Assembly: GCA_023038255.1 (NCBI GenBank)
Contig: CP082927.1
Coordinates: forward strand, 446,146 to 510,145
DNA length: 64,000 nt
Source: Candidatus Peribacteria bacterium
Lineage (GTDB): Bacteria; Patescibacteriota; Gracilibacteria; Peribacterales; Peribacteraceae
Reading direction: 5' to 3'
Positions within the stretch are counted from its first letter, which is position 1. Every line of letters starts with the position of its first letter. The notes beneath the pieces were generated by a model. It was not told the DNA's origin and made no database searches. It saw only the letters and a list, made by a program, of their open reading frames with translations. A program made the position numbers and the translations under genes. Shown one piece after another: positions 455 through 63,150 of the stretch.

Positions 455-482
455 TTCGAAATCCGAAGCACGAAATCCGAAA
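455..482 (-). repeat. heptad array (minus strand TTTCGGA-TTTCGTG-CTTCGGA-TTTCGAA)
   Basis: CGAA recurs at 457, 464, 471 and 478, exactly 7 nt apart. The array lies 12-39 nt upstream of the small ORF start at 443. Confidence 0.75.
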
Positions 483-3843: not shown

Positions 3844-3878
3844 TTTCCTAGAAGCTGAAAGCAAAAAGCTATAAGCTA
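3844..3878 (-). repeat. 35-nt heptad element, copy 1 (minus strand TAGCTTA-TAGCTTT-TTGCTTT-CAGCTTC-TAGGAAA)
   Basis: Period-7 NAG-CTTY units. It ends 6 nt before the BI-1 start codon on the opposite strand. Confidence 0.8.
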
Positions 3879-6912: not shown

Positions 6913-6948
6913 ATCCTAAAAGTCGAAACCTAGAAGCTAAAAGCTCAT
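6912..6948 (-). repeat. 35-nt heptad element, copy 2 (minus strand ATGAGCTTT-TAGCTTC-TAGGTTT-CGACTTT-TAGGAT)
   Basis: It fills the whole rpsJ-Nudix spacer and abuts the Nudix ATG. About 29 of 36 positions are identical to the copy at 55580-55615. Confidence 0.85.
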
Positions 6949-11770: not shown

Positions 11771-12751
11771 ATGAATAAAGAGGAGCGCATCGCCGGATTT
11801 GTGGAGGAGATCTGGGCGTGGTACATGCGGCATAAGCGCATTCTCCCATGGCGCGATCTCGCAATCGCCGACGACACGCAGCGTGCGTACATGGTTCTTG
11901 TCTCCGAAATCATGCTGCAGCAAACACAGGTGCCGCGCGTTATGATTATCTTCAAGCGCTTTCTCGATGAATTCCCCACTGTTGCTGCTCTCGCTCAGGC
12001 CTCAAACAAAGAGGTGATCCTGGCGTGGAAGGGGATGGGCTACAACTCGCGCGCCCTGCGTCTTCGCGATGCGGCAAACATTATCATCGACGAACATCAG
12101 GGGATATTTCCCAAAGAGATGGATCAGCTGTTATCGATCAAAGGAATCGGTCCCTACACAGCCGCCGCCATCCGCAACTTCGCATTCAACATCCCGACGC
12201 CGTGCATCGACACAAATATCCGCCGCATTCTGCACCGTACGTTTGTCGGACCAGAAAGTGATGAAGGAACATGGGACATGAATGATCGCGCGTTGCTGAA
12301 AATTGCCGCAGAGGTACTGGATCACGCTGTGCAGACAGTGCCCGCCGGACTCAAGGGTGCTGCCGATTGGCATGCTGCCCTCATGGACTTTGGCTCGCTT
12401 GTGCAGACAAAATCGAATCCCAAGTGGGACATCTGTCCGCTCACAGAAAAAAACCTGATGAAAGCAACGCCAAAGAACTTTCCTGAAAGCCGAAAGCTGA
12501 AAGCCAAAAGCTCATCCAAAGAGCCCGGCCGCATGATGGGTGCCACCTATATTCCGAACCGCATCTTCCGCGGTCGCATTGTCGATGCGTTGCGCGAGCA
12601 TCATCAGGGTCTTGATTTCGATCTGATCGGTCAGGAAATCTGCACGGACTGGACTGATGAACATCATCTGTGGCTTGAGCAACTTCTCCTGAAACTCAAA
12701 GCGGACGGCCTGATTGCCGTCCGCAAGGATCGCTATGTGCTGGGGGATTAA
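11771..12751 (+). CDS. mutY: MutY-like HhH-GPD adenine DNA glycosylase lacking three of four Fe-S cysteines, with a short C-terminal domain
   Basis: LPWRD, catalytic VSEIMLQQTQV, HhH LLSIKGIGPYTAAAI, catalytic Asp in IDTNIRRIL. The cluster loop reads QTKSNPKWDICPLTEKN where CTRSKPKCSLCPLQNGC is expected. Confidence 0.8.
   Translation: MNKEERIAGFVEEIWAWYMRHKRILPWRDLAIADDTQRAYMVLVSEIMLQQTQVPRVMIIFKRFLDEFPTVAALAQASNKEVILAWKGMGYNSRALRLRDAANIIIDEHQGIFPKEMDQLLSIKGIGPYTAAAIRNFAFNIPTPCIDTNIRRILHRTFVGPESDEGTWDMNDRALLKIAAEVLDHAVQTVPAGLKGAADWHAALMDFGSLVQTKSNPKWDICPLTEKNLMKATPKNFPESRKLKAKSSSKEPGRMMGATYIPNRIFRGRIVDALREHHQGLDFDLIGQEICTDWTDEHHLWLEQLLLKLKADGLIAVRKDRYVLGD
12481..12515 (-). repeat. 35-nt heptad element, copy 3, inside the mutY-like CDS (minus strand ATGAGCTTT-TGGCTTT-CAGCTTT-CGGCTTT-CAGGA)
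   Basis: On the plus strand it reads TGAAAGC-CGAAAGC-TGAAAGC-CAAAAGC-TCAT, in frame, encoding ESRKLKAKSSS. Confidence 0.8.
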
Positions 12752-17080: not shown

Positions 17081-18667
17081 TTATTTCGCCGTTTCCTCGA
17101 TTCTGCGCTCACGAATGACATTCACCTTGATGACGCCCGGGTATGTGAGCTCATTTTCGATCTTCTTGGCAATATCCTTCGCCAGACGTTCCTGGTTCAG
17201 ATCATCCACACGGGTTGTATCCACAAACACGCGGATTTCGCGGCCCGCAGAGAGAGCAAAGGCGCGGGAGACACCCTCGAAGGTCTTGGCCACTTCCTCG
17301 AGCTCGCGGAGACGCTTGAAGTAGTCCTCAATGGATTCGCGGCGTGCACCCGGACGTGCGCCGGAGATGGCATCAGCGGCAGCAACCACAAACGCTTCCG
17401 GGCTTTCCATCGGGATATCTTCGTGATGAGCAGCTACACAGTGAATGACCTCCGGACGGATTTTGTACCGCTTACAGATTTCCACACCAATCTCCACGTG
17501 CGTGCCCGTCACTTCATGGTCGAGCGCCTTTCCGATGTCGTGGAGCAGACAGCCTTCGACCACAATCTGCGGATCAGCCCCGATTTCCTCCGCCATCATG
17601 CGTCCGATCCCCGCCATTTCCACAGAGTGCTTGAGCACATTCTGGCCGTAGGATGTACGGAAGCGGAGGCGACCGATAATTTTCAGGAGGTCCTGCGGAT
17701 AGCCGACAATACCGAGTTCTTCCACTGCGCGCTTTCCGAATTCGAGCATCATCTTTCCCACTTCCTCTTTCTGCTTGAGGACAATTTCCTCAATGCGTGC
17801 CGGCTGAATGCGGCCGTCCTTCACCAGTTTTTCCATCGAGAGCTTCGCGACGTAGCGGCGTGCAAGGTCATAGCCGGAAATCACGATCACGCCTGGCGTA
17901 TCGTCAATAATGACATCCACACCGGTCGCCATTTCAAACGCGTTAATGTTGCGGCCTTCCTTTCCGATAATCTTTCCCTTCACGTCATCGCTCGGGAGCT
18001 GGACGACCGTTGCAGTCGATTCCGTTGCGACTTCCGAGGCATAGCGCTGCATGGCCTGGGCCATGAGATCTTTTGCTTTTTCTTCGGATTCCTCTTCCAT
18101 CTGTTCCCGCTTCAGCTTGATCTGCTGGGCAAAGAAACCGGAGAATTCCTCTTCGAGCTCTTTCTTCAGTTCCTCCTTGGCTTCAGCTTCATTGAGCTTG
18201 GCCACTTTTTCCAGAGCTTCGCGGTGCTGCTTCTGGGCATCTTTCAGTTCCGCTTTCAGTTCGGTGATTTCTTCCTCTTCTTTGGTAAGCATTTCACGCT
18301 GGCGCTCGACCTCTTTCACTTTGCCGTCGAGTCCTTTTTCTTTTTCCTCCAGACGTGCCTGGTCTTTTTCCAGCTTGGTCTGGAATTCATTCGCGCTCAA
18401 ACGCGCTTCAGAAATAATTTCTTTGGCTGTTGCCTTGGCCTCTGCTTCAGCGGCTTTAATCTGGGAGCGTGCATCGCTCAACTGGATCTTCACCTGTGTG
18501 AGTTCCTTTTCATACTGCTGGATTTCCGCCTGCAGGCCGCGGGAGATGGCTTTTCCTTTACTGAACCAGAACCATCCGGCGAGAAGTCCGAGAAACAGGC
18601 CCGCGAGCAGGCCGAGAAAGACGATTGTGTAATCCATAAGAGGGGGAAGGAGTGACAAATAGGGCAC
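17081..18667 (-). CDS. rny: ribonuclease Y
   Basis: 528 aa. N-terminal TM helix, long coiled coil, KH domain (GKIIGKEGRNI), HD domain (LLHDIGKA...AAHHED). Confidence 0.93.
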   Translation of the reverse strand: MPYLSLLPPLMDYTIVFLGLLAGLFLGLLAGWFWFSKGKAISRGLQAEIQQYEKELTQVKIQLSDARSQIKAAEAEAKATAKEIISEARLSANEFQTKLEKDQARLEEKEKGLDGKVKEVERQREMLTKEEEEITELKAELKDAQKQHREALEKVAKLNEAEAKEELKKELEEEFSGFFAQQIKLKREQMEEESEEKAKDLMAQAMQRYASEVATESTATVVQLPSDDVKGKIIGKEGRNINAFEMATGVDVIIDDTPGVIVISGYDLARRYVAKLSMEKLVKDGRIQPARIEEIVLKQKEEVGKMMLEFGKRAVEELGIVGYPQDLLKIIGRLRFRTSYGQNVLKHSVEMAGIGRMMAEEIGADPQIVVEGCLLHDIGKALDHEVTGTHVEIGVEICKRYKIRPEVIHCVAAHHEDIPMESPEAFVVAAADAISGARPGARRESIEDYFKRLRELEEVAKTFEGVSRAFALSAGREIRVFVDTTRVDDLNQERLAKDIAKKIENELTYPGVIKVNVIRERRIEETAK

Positions 18668-53886: not shown

Positions 53887-53922
53887 TCCCCATAACCCAT
53901 AACTCATCACCCGTAACCCATC
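53887..53922 (+). repeat. heptad array filling the rpsL-rpsG spacer (CATAACC-CATAACT-CATCACC-CGTAACC-CATC)
   Basis: The whole 36-nt intercistronic spacer is 4.5 degenerate 7-nt units that end at the rpsG ATG. Confidence 0.8.
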
Positions 53923-54375: not shown

Positions 54376-54400
54376 TCGCCATCCACAACGAATTCCAAAA

Positions 54401-54422
54401 GAGGGCCACGAGGCTCTCTTTT
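54401..54422 (+). terminator. intrinsic terminator after rpsG
   Basis: GAGGGCC-acga-GGCTCTC (7 bp with one G-U pair) followed by TTTT. This implies fusA is not read through from rpsG. Confidence 0.6.
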
Positions 54423-54424
54423 CA

Positions 54425-54452
54425 TTAGGATTTAGTATTTCGAATTTTGCTA
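54425..54452 (+). repeat. heptad array TTAGGAT-TTAGTAT-TTCGAAT-TTTGCTA
   Basis: It lies immediately after the rpsG terminator. It carries the 19-nt exact match to 256-274. Confidence 0.8.
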
Positions 54453-54547
54453 CTACAAAATGTCCCCCAGTCTTATCAATAATAAGATGGGGGAGTGAGG
54501 GTTGTTGGAAAATGGATCAAATCAATACGATTGTGCTTTGAATACTC

Positions 54548-54835
54548 CTACGCGGCGGCTGGTGCGAACAGGGCAAGGGCCTCGATAGTTCCTTCAATAT
54601 TTGTGAGCAGCACTTTCTTGAATTCTCTCGTCAGTGGGGCAATTTGCTTTATTGCATCCTCCAAAGTGATTCCCGTTGTGAATCCAAAGAGGCGTGCGTC
54701 ATCCTCTGGGATTCCAAGCGTAAACGGCTGCCCCTCTTTCACTGCTCCTTTCACAAGGTGACCTCGGACAGTCTTTGCAGCGGCAAAATACCGCCTCAAA
54801 GCATCAGCACATTTTTCATTGATGTCGCCGACCAA
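54548..54835 (-). CDS. hypothetical protein (95 aa) inserted between rpsG and fusA
   Basis: Only a plausible ORF. No family recognised. Confidence 0.4.
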   Translation of the reverse strand: MVGDINEKCADALRRYFAAAKTVRGHLVKGAVKEGQPFTLGIPEDDARLFGFTTGITLEDAIKQIAPLTREFKKVLLTNIEGTIEALALFAPAAA

Positions 54836-55071
54836 GATTTGACCCCTTCATTTCCAAAACCACTCGAATTCCTGCTTCCGCAGTTCATCGAAAATATTGC
54901 TTCTTCACCCATAGAAGAAGCAGGAGGCGAGTGGCGACTATGTGAAAGGTCGGCTGATGTAGAAGTATAGAAACTTCCCTCTGAATCTCAAGAGAAGCTA
55001 ATTTTATCTGCATTTTGTAAAAAATACTTCACAATTCGGCTCCTCCTAGCCAAAAAAGTGTCTCTTGACCA

Positions 55072-55099
55072 TTGACAGGAAATGTAAAATAAGTATAAT
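55072..55099 (+). promoter_or_regulatory. consensus sigma-70-type promoter of the 126-aa ORF
   Basis: TTGACA-N16-TATAAT, 36 nt before ATG 55136. Confidence 0.6.
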
Positions 55100-55135
55100 G
55101 GTTCCACACTTATTTTACACATAAATACACAAATA

Positions 55136-55516
55136 ATGCCTACCACCCCTCTCACTGCCGTTTCTGGCCACATTCCTCATTTTGATACGGATCTGCTCAG
55201 TCAGATCATAGAAGTGGAAGTCGACAATGCCATCAGACAGCTGCAGACGGCCGGACGCTTTATTGATAACAGCATCGCCCGCAATTGGCAGCATTCGCTC
55301 AGAGATATGCTCACACATATGATGCTTGAGGAGCACGGAAATCACTGCATGCTGCCAGAGGACATTGAAAAAGCATTGAGGAATCTGCTGCAGGTGCTGA
55401 TAGATACGGACGTGGATCTCATCAAAAAAAAGCCGGTATGCCGTGAACAGGTGACTAGCTGGAGGCGTTTCCAGATGTCTGTCCTCCGCTTCTTCCGGAA
55501 AAAGCTGCCTTCCTAG
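55136..55516 (+). CDS. hypothetical protein (126 aa) inserted between rpsG and fusA
   Basis: ORF preceded by a consensus TTGACA-N16-TATAAT promoter (55072-55099). No family recognised. Confidence 0.5.
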   Translation: MPTTPLTAVSGHIPHFDTDLLSQIIEVEVDNAIRQLQTAGRFIDNSIARNWQHSLRDMLTHMMLEEHGNHCMLPEDIEKALRNLLQVLIDTDVDLIKKKPVCREQVTSWRRFQMSVLRFFRKKLPS

Positions 55517-55538
55517 GGCAAACGAGGCGGTAAAACGA

Positions 55539-55567
55539 TTGCATCAGCGCAGGCACTTCTGTAGAGT
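55539..55567 (+). promoter_or_regulatory. candidate fusA promoter
   Basis: TTGCAT-N17-TAGAGT. The predicted TSS falls at the start of the heptad-repeat leader. Confidence 0.4.
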
Positions 55568-55571
55568 ACCC

Positions 55572-55616
55572 CAGCTTTTATGAGCTTTTAGCTTATAGAT
55601 GTTAGCTTTTAGGAAT
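55572..55616 (+). repeat. 35-nt heptad element, copy 4, in the fusA leader (GAGCTTT-TAGCTTA-TAGATGT-TAGCTTT-TAGGAAT)
   Basis: Five in-phase (G/T)AG-N4 units, plus one out-of-phase CAGCTTT. Confidence 0.85.
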
Positions 55617-55624
55617 TACTCTCA

Positions 55625-55659
55625 TTCCTAATTCCTAACTCCTAATTCCTCACTCCCAA
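55625..55659 (+). repeat. heptad array TTCCTAA-TTCCTAA-CTCCTAA-TTCCTCA-CTCCCAA directly upstream of the fusA ATG
   Basis: Five 7-nt units. The reverse complement of the unit is TTAGGAA. TTAGGAAT (55609-55616) and ATTCCTAA (55624-55631) can form an 8-bp hairpin. Confidence 0.85.
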
Positions 55660-55663
55660 TCCC

Positions 55664-57778
55664 ATGGACCTCAAGCACGTTCGTAACATCGGTATTATCG
55701 CGCACATCGACGCAGGAAAGACAACGACGTCCGAGCGCATTCTCTTCTACACGGGCCGCAACTATAAAATCGGCGAAGTGCACGAAGGTGAGGCAACCAT
55801 GGACTGGATGGAACAGGAGCGTGAGCGTGGAATTACCATTACCGCTGCGGCAACGCAGTGTCACTGGAAGGCGCAGGCTCCGGGAGAGGGGGAAGTCGAC
55901 ATTACCATCAACCTGATTGATACCCCGGGTCACGTGGACTTCACCGCTGAGGTGGAACGTTCCCTGCGCGTGCTCGACGGAGGAGTGGTGGTGTTTGATG
56001 GTTCCCAGGGTGTGGAACCGCAGTCCGAGACCGTGTGGCGCCAGGCGGATAAGTATCATGTCCCGCGTATTGCATTCGTGAACAAAATGGATAAGACAGG
56101 AGGAGACTTCTACATGTCCCTCGCGTCCATCCACGATCGTCTGAGCAAGACTGCCGTTGCAGTCCAGCTCCCGATTGGAGCGGAGAGCGATTTCTCCGGT
56201 ATCGTCGACCTCGTGCAGAAGAAAGCATTCAAATTCGAAGGAGAGCACGGACAGAACATTATCGAGATTCCTATTCCGGAAGACATGCACGAGCAGGTGA
56301 TTGAGTACCGCACCCTTCTGATGGAAAAGGTGGCAGAGAACAATGACGATATGATCGACCACTTCCTGGAGAACGGAGCTCTCACGGACGAACAGCTCTT
56401 CCGCGGTATCCGCCAGGCAACTGTCGTCGGAAAGATTTACCCGGTCTTCTGCGGCAGCAGCCTCCAGAACGTCGGTGTGCAGTTCGTGCTCAACGGTGTG
56501 GTTGCATACCTCCCGTCTCCGCTCGATGTGCCGTCCATCCGTGGAACAAACCCGGATACGGAAGAGCCGATGGAGCGCAAGCCCTCTGATGATGAACCGT
56601 TCTCCGCACTCGCATTCAAAATCGCCACAGACCCGTTCGTCGGTCGTCTGACGTTCGTCCGCGTCTACTCCGGTGTCATGAAGACAGGAACAGCCGTGTA
56701 TAACCCGCGCTCAAACGCCAAGGAACGTATCGGCCGCCTCGTCCGCCTGCACGCAAACTCCCGCGAAGAAATCCAGGAAATCCGCGCCGGTGATATCGGT
56801 GCCGTGATCGGACTGAAGGAGACACGCACAGGAGACACACTCTGTGACGAAGCAAAGCCAATCCAGCTGGAATCCATCACCTTCGCCGAGCCGGTTATCT
56901 CCATCGCTATTGAACCGAAGACCAAGCAGGATCAGGAAAAAATGGGTATCGCGCTGCAGAAGCTTGCAGAAGAGGATCCGACATTCCGCGTCCGCACCGA
57001 CGACGAAACGAACCAGACAATCATCGCGGGAATGGGAGAACTCCACCTCGATATCCTTGTCGACCGTATGCGTCGCGAATTCAAGGTGGAAACCAACGTC
57101 GGTACACCGCAGGTTGCGTACCGCGAAACCATCACGAAGGAAGTGGAGGGCGAGAGCAAGTACATCAAGCAGACCGGTGGTCGCGGTCAGTACGGACACG
57201 TTGTCTTCAAACTGATTCCGCAGGAACCGGGCAAGGGCTACGAGTTCGTAAACTCTGTGGTCGGAGGCCGCATCCCGCGCGAATTCATTGCTCCGTGTGA
57301 CAAGGGATTCCAGGAAGGTATGACCCGCGGTATCCAGGCTGGTTACCCGGTTGTGGACGTGAAGGTTGAACTACTCGACGGTTCCTACCACGACGTGGAC
57401 TCCTCCGAAATGGCGTACAAATTTGCAGCCTCCATCGGATTCCAGGAACAGGCCAAGAAAGCAGATCCGGTCATTCTCGAACCGATCATGAAGGTGGAAG
57501 TCACCTGCAGCGAAAACTACCTCGGAGACGTGATGGGCGACCTGAACTCCCGCCGCGGTATGATCCTCAGCCAGTCCGATCGCGGAATGGCCAAGGTGAT
57601 TGCTGCCGAAGTGCCGCTCTCCGAAATGTTCGGATATGCCACAGAACTCCGCTCCATGACCCAGGGCCGCGCGAGCTACGCGATGGAACCGAGCCACTAC
57701 TTCAAGGTGCCGAAGAACAAAGCAGACGAAATTGCTGCTTCCCGCTCCGGAGTGGCAGTATCACGCTCAAACGGTTAA
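55664..57778 (+). CDS. fusA: elongation factor G
   Basis: 704 aa. [28 protein letters not shown], and full collinearity with EF-G. Confidence 0.98.
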
Positions 57779-57826: not shown

Positions 57827-58098
57827 ATTGACAGATATAAAAAATGTTTCTCATTTTCCCTCTTCTGTCTGGGGAAGTTGTACGTAAATGCTCAAATAGA
57901 GAGATGTTTTTTCTGTACAGGAAAGCCCTTTTACTCATTTTTCTCCGGCAAATATCATTGTACCCTCCCTTCATATTTTGCATAGAAAACTATACAGACA
58001 CTGCTTCAAAACAATAAATAGTGCGGTTTTATTTGCTTTTAGGGTTTTATTTGCGTAGCATGCCGAATTGTATTGCTATCCTTCCCACCTTTCTCCTT

Positions 58099-61000
58099 AT
58101 GGAAAGATTTATCAAGCACGCCAAGCGGAGCATCTCAACATTCTCGCTGGCGGCTCTTTCGCTAAATATTTTACTCGGATCTGCGGTAGCAGCTTTGCCG
58201 GTTTTTTCGCCACAGGCAAATGCCGTAGGCACAACCCTGCTGGCCACTGCAGTCGGAAATTACGATCAATGGAGTGCGAGTGCGGGAAGCAAGGTTGCTG
58301 CTGTGGGCACGAATGATGCTGTTTTTATCAGTGAGGCGACAAATACAGAGAGGCAGAGCTTCACATTTGCATCTGCAGGCATTCCCACTGGCGCCCTTGT
58401 TAGCTCCGTCGTCTTGAATGTTCTTGCAAAGGAAACAGGAGGAAGCAGTGCGTCTATGAAATTATTTGCAGAAGACGGGCTTACAGCCGGAGATCGCGAT
58501 GTCGGAAGTACGAACAATCTGACAAGCAGCTATGTAAACTACACGAAAACCTGGAATGAAAATCCCTTTACGAACAATGACTGGACTGCAGCGGAGGTGA
58601 ATACATGGACAGTGAACTTTGGTGTCGAAAAAAGTTCGGCCAATGCGGATGTTGCCAATGTGACCTACATGGAACTGGTCGTGAATTACACAGTTCCAAC
58701 CTGTAATGCACTGAGTGCTACCATTTCGGGTTCGGGAATTATCAACGGTACTGCCGGTGATGATGTGATTGTTGGTTCCAGCGGTGTGGATACCATCACA
58801 GGAAACGGGGGAAATGACACGATCTGTGCGCTGGGGGGGAACGATTCTGTCACAACAGGAAACGGTAATGACTGGATTGATACAGGTGACGGCACAAACA
58901 CTGTTGTTGCCAACGGAGGGAATAACACAGTATTTGGCGGAAGCGGTAACGATAACATTACAACTGGAAACGGTAATGACACTATTGATGCGGGAGATGG
59001 AAGCAATGTAATTGTGGCAGGTGCGGGTGTGAATATGATCGACTCAGGAAACGGTAACGATACCATCACTACTGGAAATGATAACGACACCATTGTTGCC
59101 GGAGACGGAAGCAATGTGATTAATGCGGGCTCTGGCACAAACTCTGTCACAACCGGCAACGGTAATGACAGCATTACGACTGGAAACAACGATGACACAA
59201 TCGTCGCAGGTGCCGGTAGTAATACAATCGTCGCAGGTGCCGGTGTGAACTCTGTTACAACCGGTAATGGCAATGACGATATTACGACTGGAAACAATGA
59301 CGACACTATCATTGCAGGAGATGGAAGTAATGTGATTGACGCGGGATCGGGTGAAAATACCGTGACCACTGGAAACGGAAACGACGATGTCACCACTGGA
59401 AACGGAAACGATACTATCGTTCTTGGGAATGGGACGAACGGCACAGCTGGTGATCGTATTCAATCAGGTGCAGGAAATGACTCGATCACAGGTGGGTCCG
59501 GTAATGATCACTTCGATGGCGGAGATGGTATGGACTATTGTGATCCTGTCGGAACAGGGGGAAATAATACAACAATCAACTGTGAAGCCGTGGGCGATCA
59601 GGCACTCGTCACTATTGTCAAAGATGCACAGCCGGATACTGCGGATGACTTCCTCTTTACAGGCGATATCGGTGCATTTGCACTCGATGACGACGCCGAC
59701 GGAACACTCCCGAACAGCACAACTGTCACGATGGCTGCCACAGTGGGCGGCACGGTCCGCTCAATCACGGAATCTGTGGCTACAGGTTGGCAACTCCAGA
59801 GCATTACCTGTACTCCGGATGCCGGAACATCAGGAAATGTCGGTTCTCAGACAGCAACAGTTCTTTTGAATAAAGGAGATCATATCACTTGTACATTCGT
59901 GAACACTCCTGCTCCTGTTACGACAGTCAGAGTGACAATCGCTAAATATATGAACGGCGTTCATGCAACCGCTGGTAACACAGACAATGCATCGTTCAAT
60001 ATGACCGCTGTGTACAACGCATCCAACATCGGATCGGGTTCCGATCCTTATGTCATCAGTGCAACCGGAAACGGTACGCCTGAGGCATACGAAGCACAGA
60101 CGATTGCACTCGCATCCGGTGCGGACTACAGCACTTACGAAACCATCAGTGCGCCATGTACCGATGCAACACCGTTTGAATTGGTTGGATATTCCACAGG
60201 AGATTCTTTGGCAGCTGCCGAGGCAGCGCCTGTCAGCATGACAGTGCCCGCTTTCACGGGGCTGACATCTGATAAGTTTGTGATTGTCTGGAATGAAACC
60301 TGTCCTCCGGTCCCGACGCATCTGACACCGGCAGACGGCAGCACGCTGACAACCGCACAGCTCGACAAGATCGACTGGAGCGATGTGGCAACGCCTGCAT
60401 TGCCGATGACGTATTTCTACGAAGTGGCAACGACAGATACGAGCACCAATCCTGATGGGTCCTTCGTGAACCCGGTGTATGAATCTGCAGCACTGTCCGA
60501 CTCCGAAATTGTGACAGCAGGTACAGGAGATGGAACCTACCACTGGCATGTCCGCGCCGTTGACGCTGCAGGAAACAGCAGTGCATGGTCGGCACCTTGG
60601 ACGGTGACAGTCAGCAACGCCGCAGTGGATACCACGCCGCCGGTCGTCGAGATTCTCGGGTACCGCAATCAGACAAGTGGAACCTATGATAGCGGTCCTG
60701 CTATCCAGGCCTGTGGCACCACTACCGCCTCTTCCTTCATCGCCTTTGAGTGGCAGGAGGTTGGCACCGATGTGTCTCAGCCGTTGAGCTACGAATACAA
60801 GATTCTCAGCGGTCCAGCCGGTGTTGGATACACACAGGTACACTCTGGCACACACCACAACGGCGGTATTCCTGCAGAAGGAACGTATACCATCCAGATC
60901 ACCCCGACCGATGCAGCATCGAATGTCGGAACACCTGTTACCTGCACCATGACCTATGATGCAGACTATGTGGCCCCTGTTGCCTGTAATGTGTCTGATA

Positions 61001-63150
61001 TTGATCTGATTGCACACTGGAAGCTCGACGAAGCTGCCAGTGCAACCGTCGCAGAAGATGCAACTGCCAATAACAATGATGGTGCAGTGATGAGTGCGAC
61101 GTCCGCTGCAACTCCTGCAACAACACCGGTGTTTATCAATACAGGGTCCTACGACTTCGATGGTGTGAACGACAGTATCGATATGGGAAGCAACGTCGGC
61201 AACTTCACCGTGGCTGACTCCTTCTCCATTTCCGCCTGGATTAACCCCGCTCTCGACTTCCAGAATCATGCCATTTACGGAAATACCTGGAGCAGCCCGG
61301 GATACCTGCTGCGCGTGACGGATCAGAATAAGATCCGATTTATTCTTGCGGAGAACGGCAGCGTCTACGAAGGCATGGATTCCGGTGTGCTCACTCCGGG
61401 ATGGCACCATGTGACCGGTGTCTGGGACGGTGCGAACGTGAAAGTGTACGTTGATGGAGTGGATGCATCCATGACCTCCATTGCAAACGGGACAGTCTCA
61501 ACCATCACCACATCCGCACATACGTTTATCGGACAGACCGGACAGATCGGTTCTGCACACTACTTTGACGGTATGATCGACGACGTCCGCGTCTACGGTG
61601 ATGTCCTGAGCGAGAGTGAAATCGCAGCTCTTGCTGCCGGACAGTGCCAGGGCGGAACACCGACACCAGCTTCTTCCTCGTCATCTTCCTCCGTGGCAGC
61701 TTCCTCTGAAGCTGCATCATCTGAAGGGCAGGGCAGCAGTGCACAGTCCAGCACTCCTGAAATCGTCGCTTGTACCACAACCGCTTTGGCAGGGTACTGG
61801 CCGATGAACGAAGGCGAAGGCACAACAGCATTTGATATGACCGGTCTCGGCCACGACGGAACGCTCCAGGGCGGAACCGCCTGGGCATCCGGTGCAAACG
61901 CTATCACGCCAAATCCGTTCGGTCTCGACTTCGATGGCTCTGATGACATTGTGAACATTACGAGCAGCAACGACTTCAACTACGGAACACAGGAATTCAC
62001 CGTCAGCACCTTTGTCCGCACCACAACGGGTAACCGTTCCATCCTCGGAAACTTCAGCGCCGGATTCAAGGGTTGGGGACTCTACGTCTACAACACGAAC
62101 CAGGTGAACTTCTTCGGATACGGTTCCATGGGTAACAACGATGCCGCAAAGCCGGCCATTGTTCTCGACGGTAACTGGCACAACCTGACAGGTGTGTACC
62201 GCCGTTCCGGAAACGATCTGACCATTGATACCTACGTCGATGGTGTCCTGGTTGGTTCCAACACCGCTGCTGTCGGAGATATCTCTGCAAACAGCACTCT
62301 CTACTTCGGACAGTATCTGCCACAGCCGTCATTGGATGGCGGACTGGATGACGTCCGTATTTACGGCCGCGCGTTGAGCGCCGGTGAGGTCGCGGCTATT
62401 GCCGGCGGATGCAGCAATCCTGTCATCGCATCCTCCAGCTCCAGCTCTTCAAGCTCTGCATCAGAAGGGGAAAGCAGCAGTGAGTCTGTTGAGTCATTCC
62501 AGTCATTCGGTCTCTCCACACCGGAGGTTGAACCGGGTAACGGTGCTTTCCGCGGTAGCAGAACAAACATCCTCGCGGGTGTGATCAACTTCATCAAGGG
62601 TAAGATCAATATCACTGCTCCGGGTAGCTTTGGTGGTGTCGCACCGGGTGGATTCGGAGGTGCATCGGATCTTCCGTATACAATCGAAGAGAAAAACCTG
62701 ATCTGTACCATGAAGCGTGCTATCCCGACAGATGCGAAACTCGCTATCTGGGAATGGGTCGCGTCCACTCTCTCCGAGCAGATCAATCATTCTGCAGACG
62801 ATATTCTGGAAAGCCTGAAGGATTCCACCTTCTGTGACTACCAGGCAACCGCCAAGACGAAGGTTGCAGCCGCTGCAAAGCCGCTGCCATTCCTCGTGAG
62901 CGCTGCAGGATTCCCGCTTTCCGACAACCCGACATGGAACGCGTGTGTCACGGGTAAGGTGACACTCCAGGACATCCGCAATAACCCCGACAAAGACAAG
63001 CACGGACGCGGCCTCAGTTGTGCCACGTACCACACGGGAAACATGTGGACACACCCGGATCTGAAGATCTTCTTCACTTGGAACAGCAAGACGAAGAAAA
63101 TCACGCTTCCGGAAGGATTCGCTATTGAGAAGCAGGAAGTCACGCTCTAA
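58099..63150 (+). CDS. giant secreted protein with an RTX-type nonapeptide beta-roll array, a prealbumin-like domain, two LamG/ConA-like lectin domains and poly-Ser linkers
   Basis: ATG 58099 gives MERFIKHAKRSISTFSLAALSLNILLGSAVAALPVFSPQANA (signal). The track start is GTG 58021. About 25 units of G-x-G-x-[DN]-x-[IV]-x-x are present. There are two LamG domains (LIAHWKLDE...FDGMIDDVRVYG and LAGYWPMNEG...LDGGLDDVRIYG). Confidence 0.85.
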   Translation: MERFIKHAKRSISTFSLAALSLNILLGSAVAALPVFSPQANAVGTTLLATAVGNYDQWSASAGSKVAAVGTNDAVFISEATNTERQSFTFASAGIPTGALVSSVVLNVLAKETGGSSASMKLFAEDGLTAGDRDVGSTNNLTSSYVNYTKTWNENPFTNNDWTAAEVNTWTVNFGVEKSSANADVANVTYMELVVNYTVPTCNALSATISGSGIINGTAGDDVIVGSSGVDTITGNGGNDTICALGGNDSVTTGNGNDWIDTGDGTNTVVANGGNNTVFGGSGNDNITTGNGNDTIDAGDGSNVIVAGAGVNMIDSGNGNDTITTGNDNDTIVAGDGSNVINAGSGTNSVTTGNGNDSITTGNNDDTIVAGAGSNTIVAGAGVNSVTTGNGNDDITTGNNDDTIIAGDGSNVIDAGSGENTVTTGNGNDDVTTGNGNDTIVLGNGTNGTAGDRIQSGAGNDSITGGSGNDHFDGGDGMDYCDPVGTGGNNTTINCEAVGDQALVTIVKDAQPDTADDFLFTGDIGAFALDDDADGTLPNSTTVTMAATVGGTVRSITESVATGWQLQSITCTPDAGTSGNVGSQTATVLLNKGDHITCTFVNTPAPVTTVRVTIAKYMNGVHATAGNTDNASFNMTAVYNASNIGSGSDPYVISATGNGTPEAYEAQTIALASGADYSTYETISAPCTDATPFELVGYSTGDSLAAAEAAPVSMTVPAFTGLTSDKFVIVWNETCPPVPTHLTPADGSTLTTAQLDKIDWSDVATPALPMTYFYEVATTDTSTNPDGSFVNPVYESAALSDSEIVTAGTGDGTYHWHVRAVDAAGNSSAWSAPWTVTVSNAAVDTTPPVVEILGYRNQTSGTYDSGPAIQACGTTTASSFIAFEWQEVGTDVSQPLSYEYKILSGPAGVGYTQVHSGTHHNGGIPAEGTYTIQITPTDAASNVGTPVTCTMTYDADYVAPVACNVSDIDLIAHWKLDEAASATVAEDATANNNDGAVMSATSAATPATTPVFINTGSYDFDGVNDSIDMGSNVGNFTVADSFSISAWINPALDFQNHAIYGNTWSSPGYLLRVTDQNKIRFILAENGSVYEGMDSGVLTPGWHHVTGVWDGANVKVYVDGVDASMTSIANGTVSTITTSAHTFIGQTGQIGSAHYFDGMIDDVRVYGDVLSESEIAALAAGQCQGGTPTPASSSSSSSVAASSEAASSEGQGSSAQSSTPEIVACTTTALAGYWPMNEGEGTTAFDMTGLGHDGTLQGGTAWASGANAITPNPFGLDFDGSDDIVNITSSNDFNYGTQEFTVSTFVRTTTGNRSILGNFSAGFKGWGLYVYNTNQVNFFGYGSMGNNDAAKPAIVLDGNWHNLTGVYRRSGNDLTIDTYVDGVLVGSNTAAVGDISANSTLYFGQYLPQPSLDGGLDDVRIYGRALSAGEVAAIAGGCSNPVIASSSSSSSSSASEGESSSESVESFQSFGLSTPEVEPGNGAFRGSRTNILAGVINFIKGKINITAPGSFGGVAPGGFGGASDLPYTIEEKNLICTMKRAIPTDAKLAIWEWVASTLSEQINHSADDILESLKDSTFCDYQATAKTKVAAAAKPLPFLVSAAGFPLSDNPTWNACVTGKVTLQDIRNNPDKDKHGRGLSCATYHTGNMWTHPDLKIFFTWNSKTKKITLPEGFAIEKQEVTL
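58747..59535 (+). repeat. 27-nt (nonapeptide) coding repeat array inside the giant gene
   Basis: About 25 consecutive G-x-G-x-[DN]-x-[IV]-x-x units (GNGNDTIDA GDGSNVIVA GAGVNMIDS ...). Confidence 0.85.

Follow-up and report, generated by a model that had tools for sequence, protein, structure and literature searches.

Heptamer repeats make up the leader of fusA in a Peribacteraceae bacterium that initiates translation largely without Shine-Dalgarno sequences

The gene for elongation factor G (EF-G), fusA, and its 5' leader were analyzed in a stretch of 64,000 nucleotides (hereafter the window; contig CP082927.1, positions 446,146 to 510,145) from an uncultured groundwater bacterium of the Peribacteraceae (Peregrinibacteria), which belongs to the Candidate Phyla Radiation (CPR). 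The leader is a G-depleted, unstructured start region that is free of any Shine-Dalgarno (SD) sequence and consists of heptamer repeats, placed behind a conserved promoter and an AGC-phased element (AGCUUYU, five to six copies). Its start-proximal part, a G-free array of C, U and A of the UUCCUAA type, leaves the AUG and the ~40 nt before it essentially without structure and turns over fast in sequence. All positions given below are those of the window, unless a locus of another genome is named; such loci are designated by L numbers.

Architecture of the fusA leader

The fusA open reading frame (ORF; 55664-57778, plus strand, 704 aa) matches TIGR00484 at equivalog level, with 1107 bits against a cut-off of 659, and the named EF-G relatives recovered by protein search at 77-96% identity come from Peribacteraceae, Peribacteria or Peregrinibacteria. 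Two heptad arrays had been proposed upstream of this gene, and both were recovered by direct reading and by Tandem Repeats Finder (TRF) and exceed chance. Five heptads of the form (G/T)AG-N4 (GAGCTTT, TAGCTTA, TAGATGT, TAGCTTT and TAGGAAT) do occupy 55582-55616, as the original prediction had it, but the conserved phase of this first array is AGC-N4, and one more AGCTTTT unit is present at 55573-55579. Read in the conserved phase, array 1 spans 55573-55617 on the plus strand and consists of AGCTTTT, the triplet atg, and then AGCTTTT, AGCTTAT, AGATGTT, AGCTTTT and AGGAATT. TRF reports it as AGCTTTT in 4.3 copies with period 7 at 55583-55612.

A loop, TACTCTC (55617-55623), is followed by the G-free array 2 (55624-55663, plus strand), which reads ATTCCTA, ATTCCTA, ACTCCTA, ATTCCTC, ACTCCCA and ATCCC and runs up to the ATG at 55664. 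Shifted by one position, the same array can be read as TTCCTAA, TTCCTAA, CTCCTAA, TTCCTCA and CTCCCAA at 55625-55659, followed by TCCC. TRF calls ATTCCTA in 3.9 copies at 55624-55650 and a 14-nt period in 2.5 copies at 55626-55660, array 2 having 90% matches at period 7 and at period 14. When compared with itself at a lag of 7, the fusA intergenic region shows 18 matches in 21 positions, and composition-preserving shuffles of all intergenic regions did not reach 17/21 at any lag.

Array 2 has the features of a start-codon-proximal heptamer direct repeat, namely a 7-nt unit present in at least two copies and ending at the start codon in the place of an SD sequence. No 4-mer of the GGAG, GAGG or AGGA type occurs in the last 40 nt before the fusA ATG, where the count of G is zero; the leader thus has no SD sequence because this segment is G-free, in agreement with what had been noted before.

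A leader peptide encoded by ATG AGC TTT TAG (55580-55591) was considered and rejected, its ATG being missing in the related loci L161, L162 and L166. Because the ATG is not retained, this mini-ORF is probably incidental. The same mini-ORF begins the AGCTTTT array in the leader of a NUDIX gene described below (6948-6937, minus strand).

Promoter and predicted transcription start

A promoter can be read directly at 55539-55567 on the plus strand, with a -35 box TTGCAT (55539-55544), a 17-nt spacer and a -10 box TAGAGT (55562-55567). It lies where it had been placed earlier and is conserved in relatives, since TTGCAT-N17-TA(G/T)AGT is retained in L161, L162, L166, L170, L171 and L172 and a TTGCAA variant occurs in L173, seven related genomes in all. 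A simple promoter scanner made no call at this site because the -35 box matches at only three of six positions. Transcription is predicted to start at about 55574-55577, which would give a leader of ~90 nt; both values are predictions, as the conserved promoter is the sole evidence for them. The order of genes is rpoC, rpsL, rpsG, a 1.29-kb insert and fusA, and fusA, being split from the str operon, therefore needs a promoter of its own.

Conservation of the leader in related genomes

The loci of close relatives were recovered through a protein search combined with contig look-ups, and the fusA loci compared, L001 among them, have EF-G identities of 95%, 95%, 95%, 89%, 89%, 87%, 86% and 79%. 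In five species an alignment (A2) can be made across the promoter and the first four AGC-phased heptads, and every unit has an invariant G and C. Among the four closest species, pairwise identity in the array-1 block is 0.69-0.79, compared with 0.53-0.59 at the four-fold sites of fusA in the same pairs, so that array 1 changes at a lower rate than synonymous sites. Judged from these alignments, the AGC-phased array 1 is under purifying selection.

Nothing is alignable among the orthologous leaders on the 3' side of array 1. The start-proximal part is made of TCCTNNN-type heptads in L162, of ACTCATC-type heptads in L170, of CCNNAG hexamers with period 6 in L161 and L001, and of CTTCTGCAT nonamers with period 9 in L173. 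Lack of conserved periodicity in orthologous leaders had been named beforehand as an outcome that would count against the prediction. Periodicity is in fact kept in these relatives, but the sequence itself is kept only in the promoter-proximal, AGC-phased array, and the start-proximal array switches its unit and its period or vanishes. The units that fill the spacer between rpsL and rpsG are CCCATAA in the window, CATTTTC in L170, CATTCYN in L173, NNCCTAC in L162 and AACGAGC in L001, and are usually of 7 nt. Contigs of the same strain from three metagenomes of different habitats carry no indel in 55300-55900 and no substitution inside the arrays, a copy-number comparison made on assembled contigs, from which rare length variants could escape.

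Structure of the leader RNA

The 8-bp complementarity that had been pointed out between the two arrays is present, TTAGGAAT (55609-55616) being the exact reverse complement of ATTCCTAA (55624-55631). Together with the loop TACTCTC they form a hairpin core at 55609-55631 (plus strand), within a minimum free energy (MFE) helix that spans 55601-55639, and a repeat finder reports an inverted repeat of 21 nt, 76% complementary. The leader RNA 55575-55690 folds with -23.1 kcal/mol, compared with -12.4 +/- 2.7 kcal/mol for shuffled sequences (z -3.97; 0 of 200 shuffles equally stable). The MFE hairpin leaves 55640-55663, that is the last ~24 nt of the leader, and the AUG unpaired.

This stability is a property of the one genome, and the checks of RNA structure and covariation that had been suggested gave no support in relatives. 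The leader folds of relatives are no better than those of shuffles (z -1.15 to +0.32), L166 lacks both the hairpin and the second array although its EF-G is 95% identical, and a consensus fold of array 1 contains 9 pairs with 0 compensatory changes. A conserved or covarying hairpin is ruled out by the folds of relatives and by this consensus, and the architecture of two opposed arrays, on which the first description of the leader had centered, is not conserved. A search of the whole window against Rfam yielded nothing at gathering score, one of 54500-56500 yielded only chance-level matches at E up to 10, and no terminator-like site was found on the plus strand in 55000-56000.

Opposed arrays were also observed at other loci. 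At positions 1258-1312 of L172, TAGGTTC (3.6 copies) and CCTGGAA (2.4 copies), situated between rpoC and the promoter of rpsL, are opposed and mutually complementary and form a long hairpin at the expected position of a terminator. In L050 (Acidobacteriaceae), ATTGCTG and CAATCAA arrays are likewise opposed, upstream of fusA.

Heptad arrays elsewhere in the window

The original prediction drew on the place of the leader before an essential translation factor. The leader is special neither to fusA nor to an essential factor, as the same type of array precedes rpsG, a NUDIX gene, a Bax1-I family gene and a gene for a small membrane protein, ending 0-5 nt before their start codons. A CCCATAA-type array of 4.7 copies (53889-53921, plus strand) fills the rpsL-rpsG spacer and ends 1 nt before the rpsG ATG (53923). 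On the minus strand, AGCTTTT, AGCTTCT, AGGTTTC, GACTTTT and AGGAT (6913-6945) extend from the rpsJ stop to the ATG of the NUDIX gene (6912), and 29 of 36 positions of this array match fusA array 1 in a manual count. The units AAGCTGA, AAGCAAA, AAGCTAT and AAGCTAT (3848-3878, plus strand) end 5 nt before the ATG of the Bax1-I family gene (3884). A CGGATTT-type array of 3.7 copies (457-482, minus strand) ends 1 nt before an ATG at 455 that is in frame with an ATG at 443, the gene behind it being a small Lys-rich membrane-protein ORF. Four GAAAGCC/GAAAGCT heptads (12483-12512, plus strand) are AGC-phased and are not part of a leader, lying in the linker of an HhH-GPD ORF (11771-12751).

Four consecutive AGC-N4 units with at most one mismatch occur six times in the window, with 0.33 occurrences expected. 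Period 7 is the commonest tandem period, accounting for 16 arrays (124 per Mb) in the 129 kb of Peribacteraceae DNA, compared with 36 period-7 arrays per Mb in a control of 1.07 Mb of other fusA loci; in intergenic DNA, the density of arrays is five times as high in Peribacteraceae as in the control loci. A lag test, which is independent of TRF scoring, was applied to 86 intergenic regions, ten of which pass 17/21 (six at lag 7, four at lag 9, none at other lags); no shuffled region passes.

Initiation without SD sequences in the lineage

The lack of an SD sequence is likewise not a trait of fusA but a genome-wide one, an SD-like 4-mer being found at -20 to -4 in only 3 of the 36 window genes. 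G accounts for 13-15% of the positions from -20 to -1, compared with 26% in coding sequence, and C and T are increased. Folds of the segment from -40 to +20 have a mean of -6.8 kcal/mol, compared with -11.9 kcal/mol for coding windows (p = 8e-8), and in a set of 28 genes the weakest are those of rpsJ (-1.7 kcal/mol), fusA (-1.8 kcal/mol) and rpsG (-2.1 kcal/mol).

These features are in line with what is recorded for the group. The 3' tails of 16S rRNA in Peribacteria are GAACACTTCCTTA and lack CCUCC (PMC10783764, Table 4 and supplementary table). Peribacter riflensis is graded as 'SD-scarce', with 7% SD genes, and loss of the anti-SD is documented in Flavobacteriia, Absconditabacteria and Peribacter (PMC10783764). 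This clade often lacks the ribosomal protein bS21, and three to four S1 domains are present in the majority of CPR bS1 proteins (PMC9297842).

Two candidate interactions with the 16S tail were rejected. Pairing with the C-rich units fails because these correspond in sense to the tail published for Peribacteria (CUUCCUUA) and are not its complement, and AGGAA at 55611-55615, the only element complementary to the tail, lies 48 nt upstream of the AUG and so was discarded as an SD sequence. A frequent ending of leaders is (C)ATC ATG or a C-rich run, as in rpsG (CCCATC ATG) and nusB (CACCCCACC ATG), and the fusA leaders of L166, L162, L173, L170 and L001 end in ATC ATG. Such endings suggest a Kozak-like start context of C or pyrimidines in this SD-less lineage.

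Heptad arrays in other phyla

Similar arrays surfaced unexpectedly in the control fusA loci, in genomes of Acidobacteriota. In the str/S10 operons of Terriglobales, rpsG, tuf and rpsJ are preceded by four to five units of GAGCTAG, AAGCTAG or GAGCTGA that stop 0-5 nt short of the ATG, and one comparable array is present upstream of fusA. The arrays are located at 2331-2364 and 5416-5444 in L013, at 2909-2946 and 5445-5477 in L104, at 2345-2377 in L102, at 2921-2954 and 5482-5506 in L099, and at 2928-2954 and 7737-7761 in L126. Their units hold GGAG at the junctions, so that they are in effect tandem SD-like arrays.

In species-representative genomes, five exact AGCT-N3 units were found in at least 120 stretches, with ~1 expected by chance over the entire collection. 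Among the matches listed (80 titles), about one third are from Acidobacteriota, and Cyanobacteria, Bacteroidota, Chloroflexota and one Peribacteria genome are also represented. In the Gracilibacteria locus L036, ATTCTTA in 4.4 copies precedes fusA.

Genomic context of fusA

The str operon is broken between rpsG and fusA by ~1.3 kb, comprising 54376-55135 and a small gene at 55136-55516. The insert contains a terminator-like hairpin 3' of rpsG (~54395-54425, identified by eye) and a 95-aa ORF on the minus strand (54548-54835) without family, and the inserts of relatives at this position differ in size and content. The small gene (126 aa) lies directly 5' of fusA and has a perfect TTGACA-16-TATAAT promoter at 55072-55099. 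Its homologues have the common motif LLxQIIxVExD and keep their position in L161, L162, L166, L170, L171 and L173; in L166 the homologue stays in place although rpsG is no longer its neighbor. Searches of Pfam and NCBIfam assigned the protein to no family, and it has three database relatives only, one of them being the window's own protein. Its AlphaFold model is a four-helix one with pLDDT 68, and Foldseek against the PDB returned nothing below E = 1. The same ORF was considered as a repeat binder resembling HutP or TRAP and was rejected, as it has no family, an all-helical model and no PDB fold match.

A giant ORF of 1709 aa (58021-63150), with matches to RTX/calcium-binding repeats, lies downstream of fusA and contains a 108-nt tandem repeat in 4.5 copies at 58938-59421. 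At the corresponding position, relatives carry other giant surface-type proteins with Laminin_G_3, Big_3_5 or HemolysinCabind domains. Elsewhere in the window, a gene for RNase Y (17081-18667, minus strand) encodes RNase_Y_N, KH and HD domains. Given this gene, mRNA decay in the organism is presumably of the Gram-positive type, which bears on ideas about the stability of 5' leaders.

Interpretation of the leader

The interpretation favored here, to which a probability of roughly 0.5 is assigned, is that heptamer repeats born by slippage are retained as an unstructured, SD-independent landing region for the ribosome, with a conserved AGC-phased element upstream. The heptads would arise by replication slippage, 7 nt being a favored repeat unit in bacterial intergenic DNA. 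They would be retained on the sense strand for supplying a G-poor, pyrimidine-rich and single-stranded landing region, such as a ribosome without a usable anti-SD may need. This region would probably be engaged by oligonucleotide/oligosaccharide-binding (OB) fold RNA binders, either bS1 or cold-shock-type domains, with a footprint of ~7 nt, and the extension of the arrays as far as the ATG suggests that they act at the level of the mRNA or of translation initiation. Array 1 may be a separate conserved leader element, either a putative platform for a single-strand RNA-binding protein or a weak 5' hairpin formed by AGCU palindromes. The hairpin between the arrays would be species-specific and incidental and, with the start region left free, is not expected to work as an on/off switch. 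From the repeat-based regulatory or translation-initiation device of the original prediction, the repeat-built and SD-free leader and its conserved promoter are carried over into this interpretation, but the device is neither specific to fusA nor based on a hairpin.

Several observations weigh against the landing-region interpretation. The fold of array 2 is no weaker than that of its own shuffles, so that composition alone, meaning the absence of G, explains the weak structure and the periodicity may therefore add nothing functionally. In L166 only CTTCACCCATCCCATC stands before the fusA ATG and there is no array 2. The tuf, rpsJ and rpsL leaders are C/U-rich and lack periodicity, and the mean over all 104 candidate leaders shows no excess at lag 7, so heptads are a feature of a subset of leaders. 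Furthermore, the AGCT array of a Peribacteria genome (L243) lies upstream of the -10 box and not in the leader. Array 1, which holds G and palindromes, is a misfit with the idea of an unstructured pad and needs a separate explanation. Lastly, the only RNA run from the sample that holds the strain contained 0 of this sequence, and the leader is thus inferred.

Some of these points would be expected if the heptads were a neutral by-product, that is, slippage-derived microsatellites in unconstrained spacers where selection acts on composition only and where neither arrays nor hairpin have a function. Array 2 turns over entirely between species with 95% identical EF-G and is missing in one of them (L166), unit sequences vary from gene to gene, and one AGC-phased array lies within a coding linker (12483-12512). 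In addition, an excess of heptamers is general in bacteria and ascribed to polymerase slippage, and lag 7 is dominant in unrelated fusA loci too. Neutrality is nevertheless considered a minor possibility, given that array 1 is more conserved than four-fold sites and keeps the G and C of its units invariant in five species, that a near-copy of it stands before the NUDIX gene ATG, that the intergenic DNA of Peribacteraceae has five times the array density of control loci, and that they abut start codons, the start-proximal ones being G-poor on the sense strand. Array 1 could instead be an operator read by a ring-shaped or oligomeric RNA-binding regulator in the manner of HutP or TRAP, which would control translation or elongation of fusA, with the hairpin as a regulated structure. 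Five GAG/UAG-N4 units in exact 7-nt register, an AG(C) core that is conserved across species between variable spacers, and the same motif before two or three other genes all fit such an operator. It is an unlikely one, however, as no gene for a HutP- or TRAP-like protein was found within the 64-kb window, the leader contains no terminator or antiterminator, the hairpin is absent in relatives that retain array 1, no common function links the genes with the motif (NUDIX, Bax1-I), and AGCT heptads occur in many phyla.

A broader proposal is held to be quite unlikely: the 7-nt phasing itself might be a cross-phylum signal for ribosome recruitment or regulation before start codons, read by tandem OB-fold domains (bS1 or cold-shock) with one domain per heptad. 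Such a signal would replace the SD interaction in lineages devoid of an anti-SD and multiply the SD elsewhere, and its examples would be the G-free units of Peribacteraceae and Gracilibacteria, the AGCU-phased units of Peribacteraceae and the (R)AGCUAG units with GGAG in the str/S10 regions of Acidobacteriota. A structure-based riboregulator, in which an AGGAA/UUCCU helix resembling an SD:anti-SD duplex would act as thermosensor, attenuator or stabilizer of fusA, draws on the stable fold in this genome (z -3.97) and on the presence in L162 and L161 of some hairpin, of other sequence, at the equivalent place. Yet the folds of relatives do not differ significantly from shuffles, the hairpin is missing in L166, the array-1 consensus fold has no compensatory pairs, the start codon and the 24 nt before it lie outside the hairpin, and neither a U-tract terminator nor an Rfam family was found, all of which makes riboregulation very improbable. 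A phase-variable contingency locus, where changes in repeat copy number would switch fusA expression, is barely conceivable: fusA is essential, the arrays are poor substrates for slippage because their units are degenerate, and the contigs of the three metagenomes show no indel or substitution within them.

This locus bears on how start codons are found in bacteria without an anti-SD, which include much of the CPR. It shows, for one such lineage, that core translation genes have leaders which contain no G, are unstructured and often consist of 7-nt repeats. Considered alongside the (AGCTNNN)n arrays that precede rpsG, tuf and rpsJ in culturable Acidobacteriota, it offers a testable handle on the heptamers of Mrazek (2007) and MacGregor (2015), which have long been known. 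If the arrays were only slippage debris, they would be a caution for gene finders and RNA-motif hunters, periodic leaders being ordinary in these genomes. The weight of the finding lies in array 1 being conserved beyond what a neutral rate would give, in the periodicity that is kept despite changes of unit, and in the cross-phylum occurrence of AGCT heptads before translation genes.

Comparison with known systems

In Bacillus, HutP recognizes UAG triplets spaced by 4 nt and TRAP recognizes GAG/UAG repeats. The fusA leader resembles their operators in its phased (N)AG triplets (GAG/TAG-N4, five units at 55582-55616), and the 4-nt spacing of HutP amounts to a heptad. It differs from them in having no terminator or antiterminator and no SD sequence under control, and in that the genes concerned are unrelated, so the resemblance is one of pattern only. 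With the SD-independent initiation of the Bacteroidota type the lineage shares the absence of SD sequences, the lowered G content and the weak structure of the start region. In Bacteroidota, however, leaders are rich in A and U and are not known to be periodic, whereas the present lineage has a genome of ~50% GC and leaders that are C/U-rich and often built of repeats.

Heptanucleotide repeats are the most abundant long simple-sequence repeats (SSRs) in most prokaryotic genomes and have tentatively been attributed to polymerase slippage, according to the accounts of Mrazek (2007) given in PMC4679880 and PMC4692102. Tandem heptanucleotide repeats are known from cyanobacteria, and GGGAATC/GGGGAYT repeats from Xanthomonas and Nostoc, sometimes in opposed pairs (Rehm 2015, PMC4692102). 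The arrays described here are similar to these intergenic SSRs in their 7-nt unit, their intergenic position, their usual number of about four units and their variation in length and sequence among close relatives at one locus, as well as in the occasional pairs of arrays on opposite strands that can form stem-loops. The repeats of Xanthomonas, Nostoc and cyanobacteria are, however, G-rich, prone to form quadruplexes and not tied to start codons, whereas the present arrays are G-poor or AGC-phased and abut ATGs.

The nearest parallel is provided by the TAACTGA repeats of marine Beggiatoaceae, which lie within a few nucleotides of start codons, occur in ribosomal protein operons and are found before fusA (MacGregor 2015, PMC4679880). 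S1, Csp and CsrA have been proposed as their binders, and CspB of B. subtilis binds with one protein per heptamer (PMC4679880). Both kinds of array are tandem 7-nt direct repeats, in two to six copies in the Beggiatoaceae, that take the place of the SD sequence where canonical SDs are rare, and both precede fusA. Whereas the Beggiatoaceae repeat is a single unit with 169 occurrences and the organism has a canonical anti-SD, Peribacteraceae use many units (AGCTTYT, ATTCCTA, CCCATAA, CGGATTT and others) and have a 16S tail without CCUCC; the start-proximal units of the fusA leader are moreover G-free, and its two opposed arrays make a hairpin. None of the leader units here matches TAACTGA, so that the two are elements of one kind but belong to different sequence families. 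What precedes fusA here is one local case of an already known kind of SD-free heptamer leader and not a device specific to this gene.

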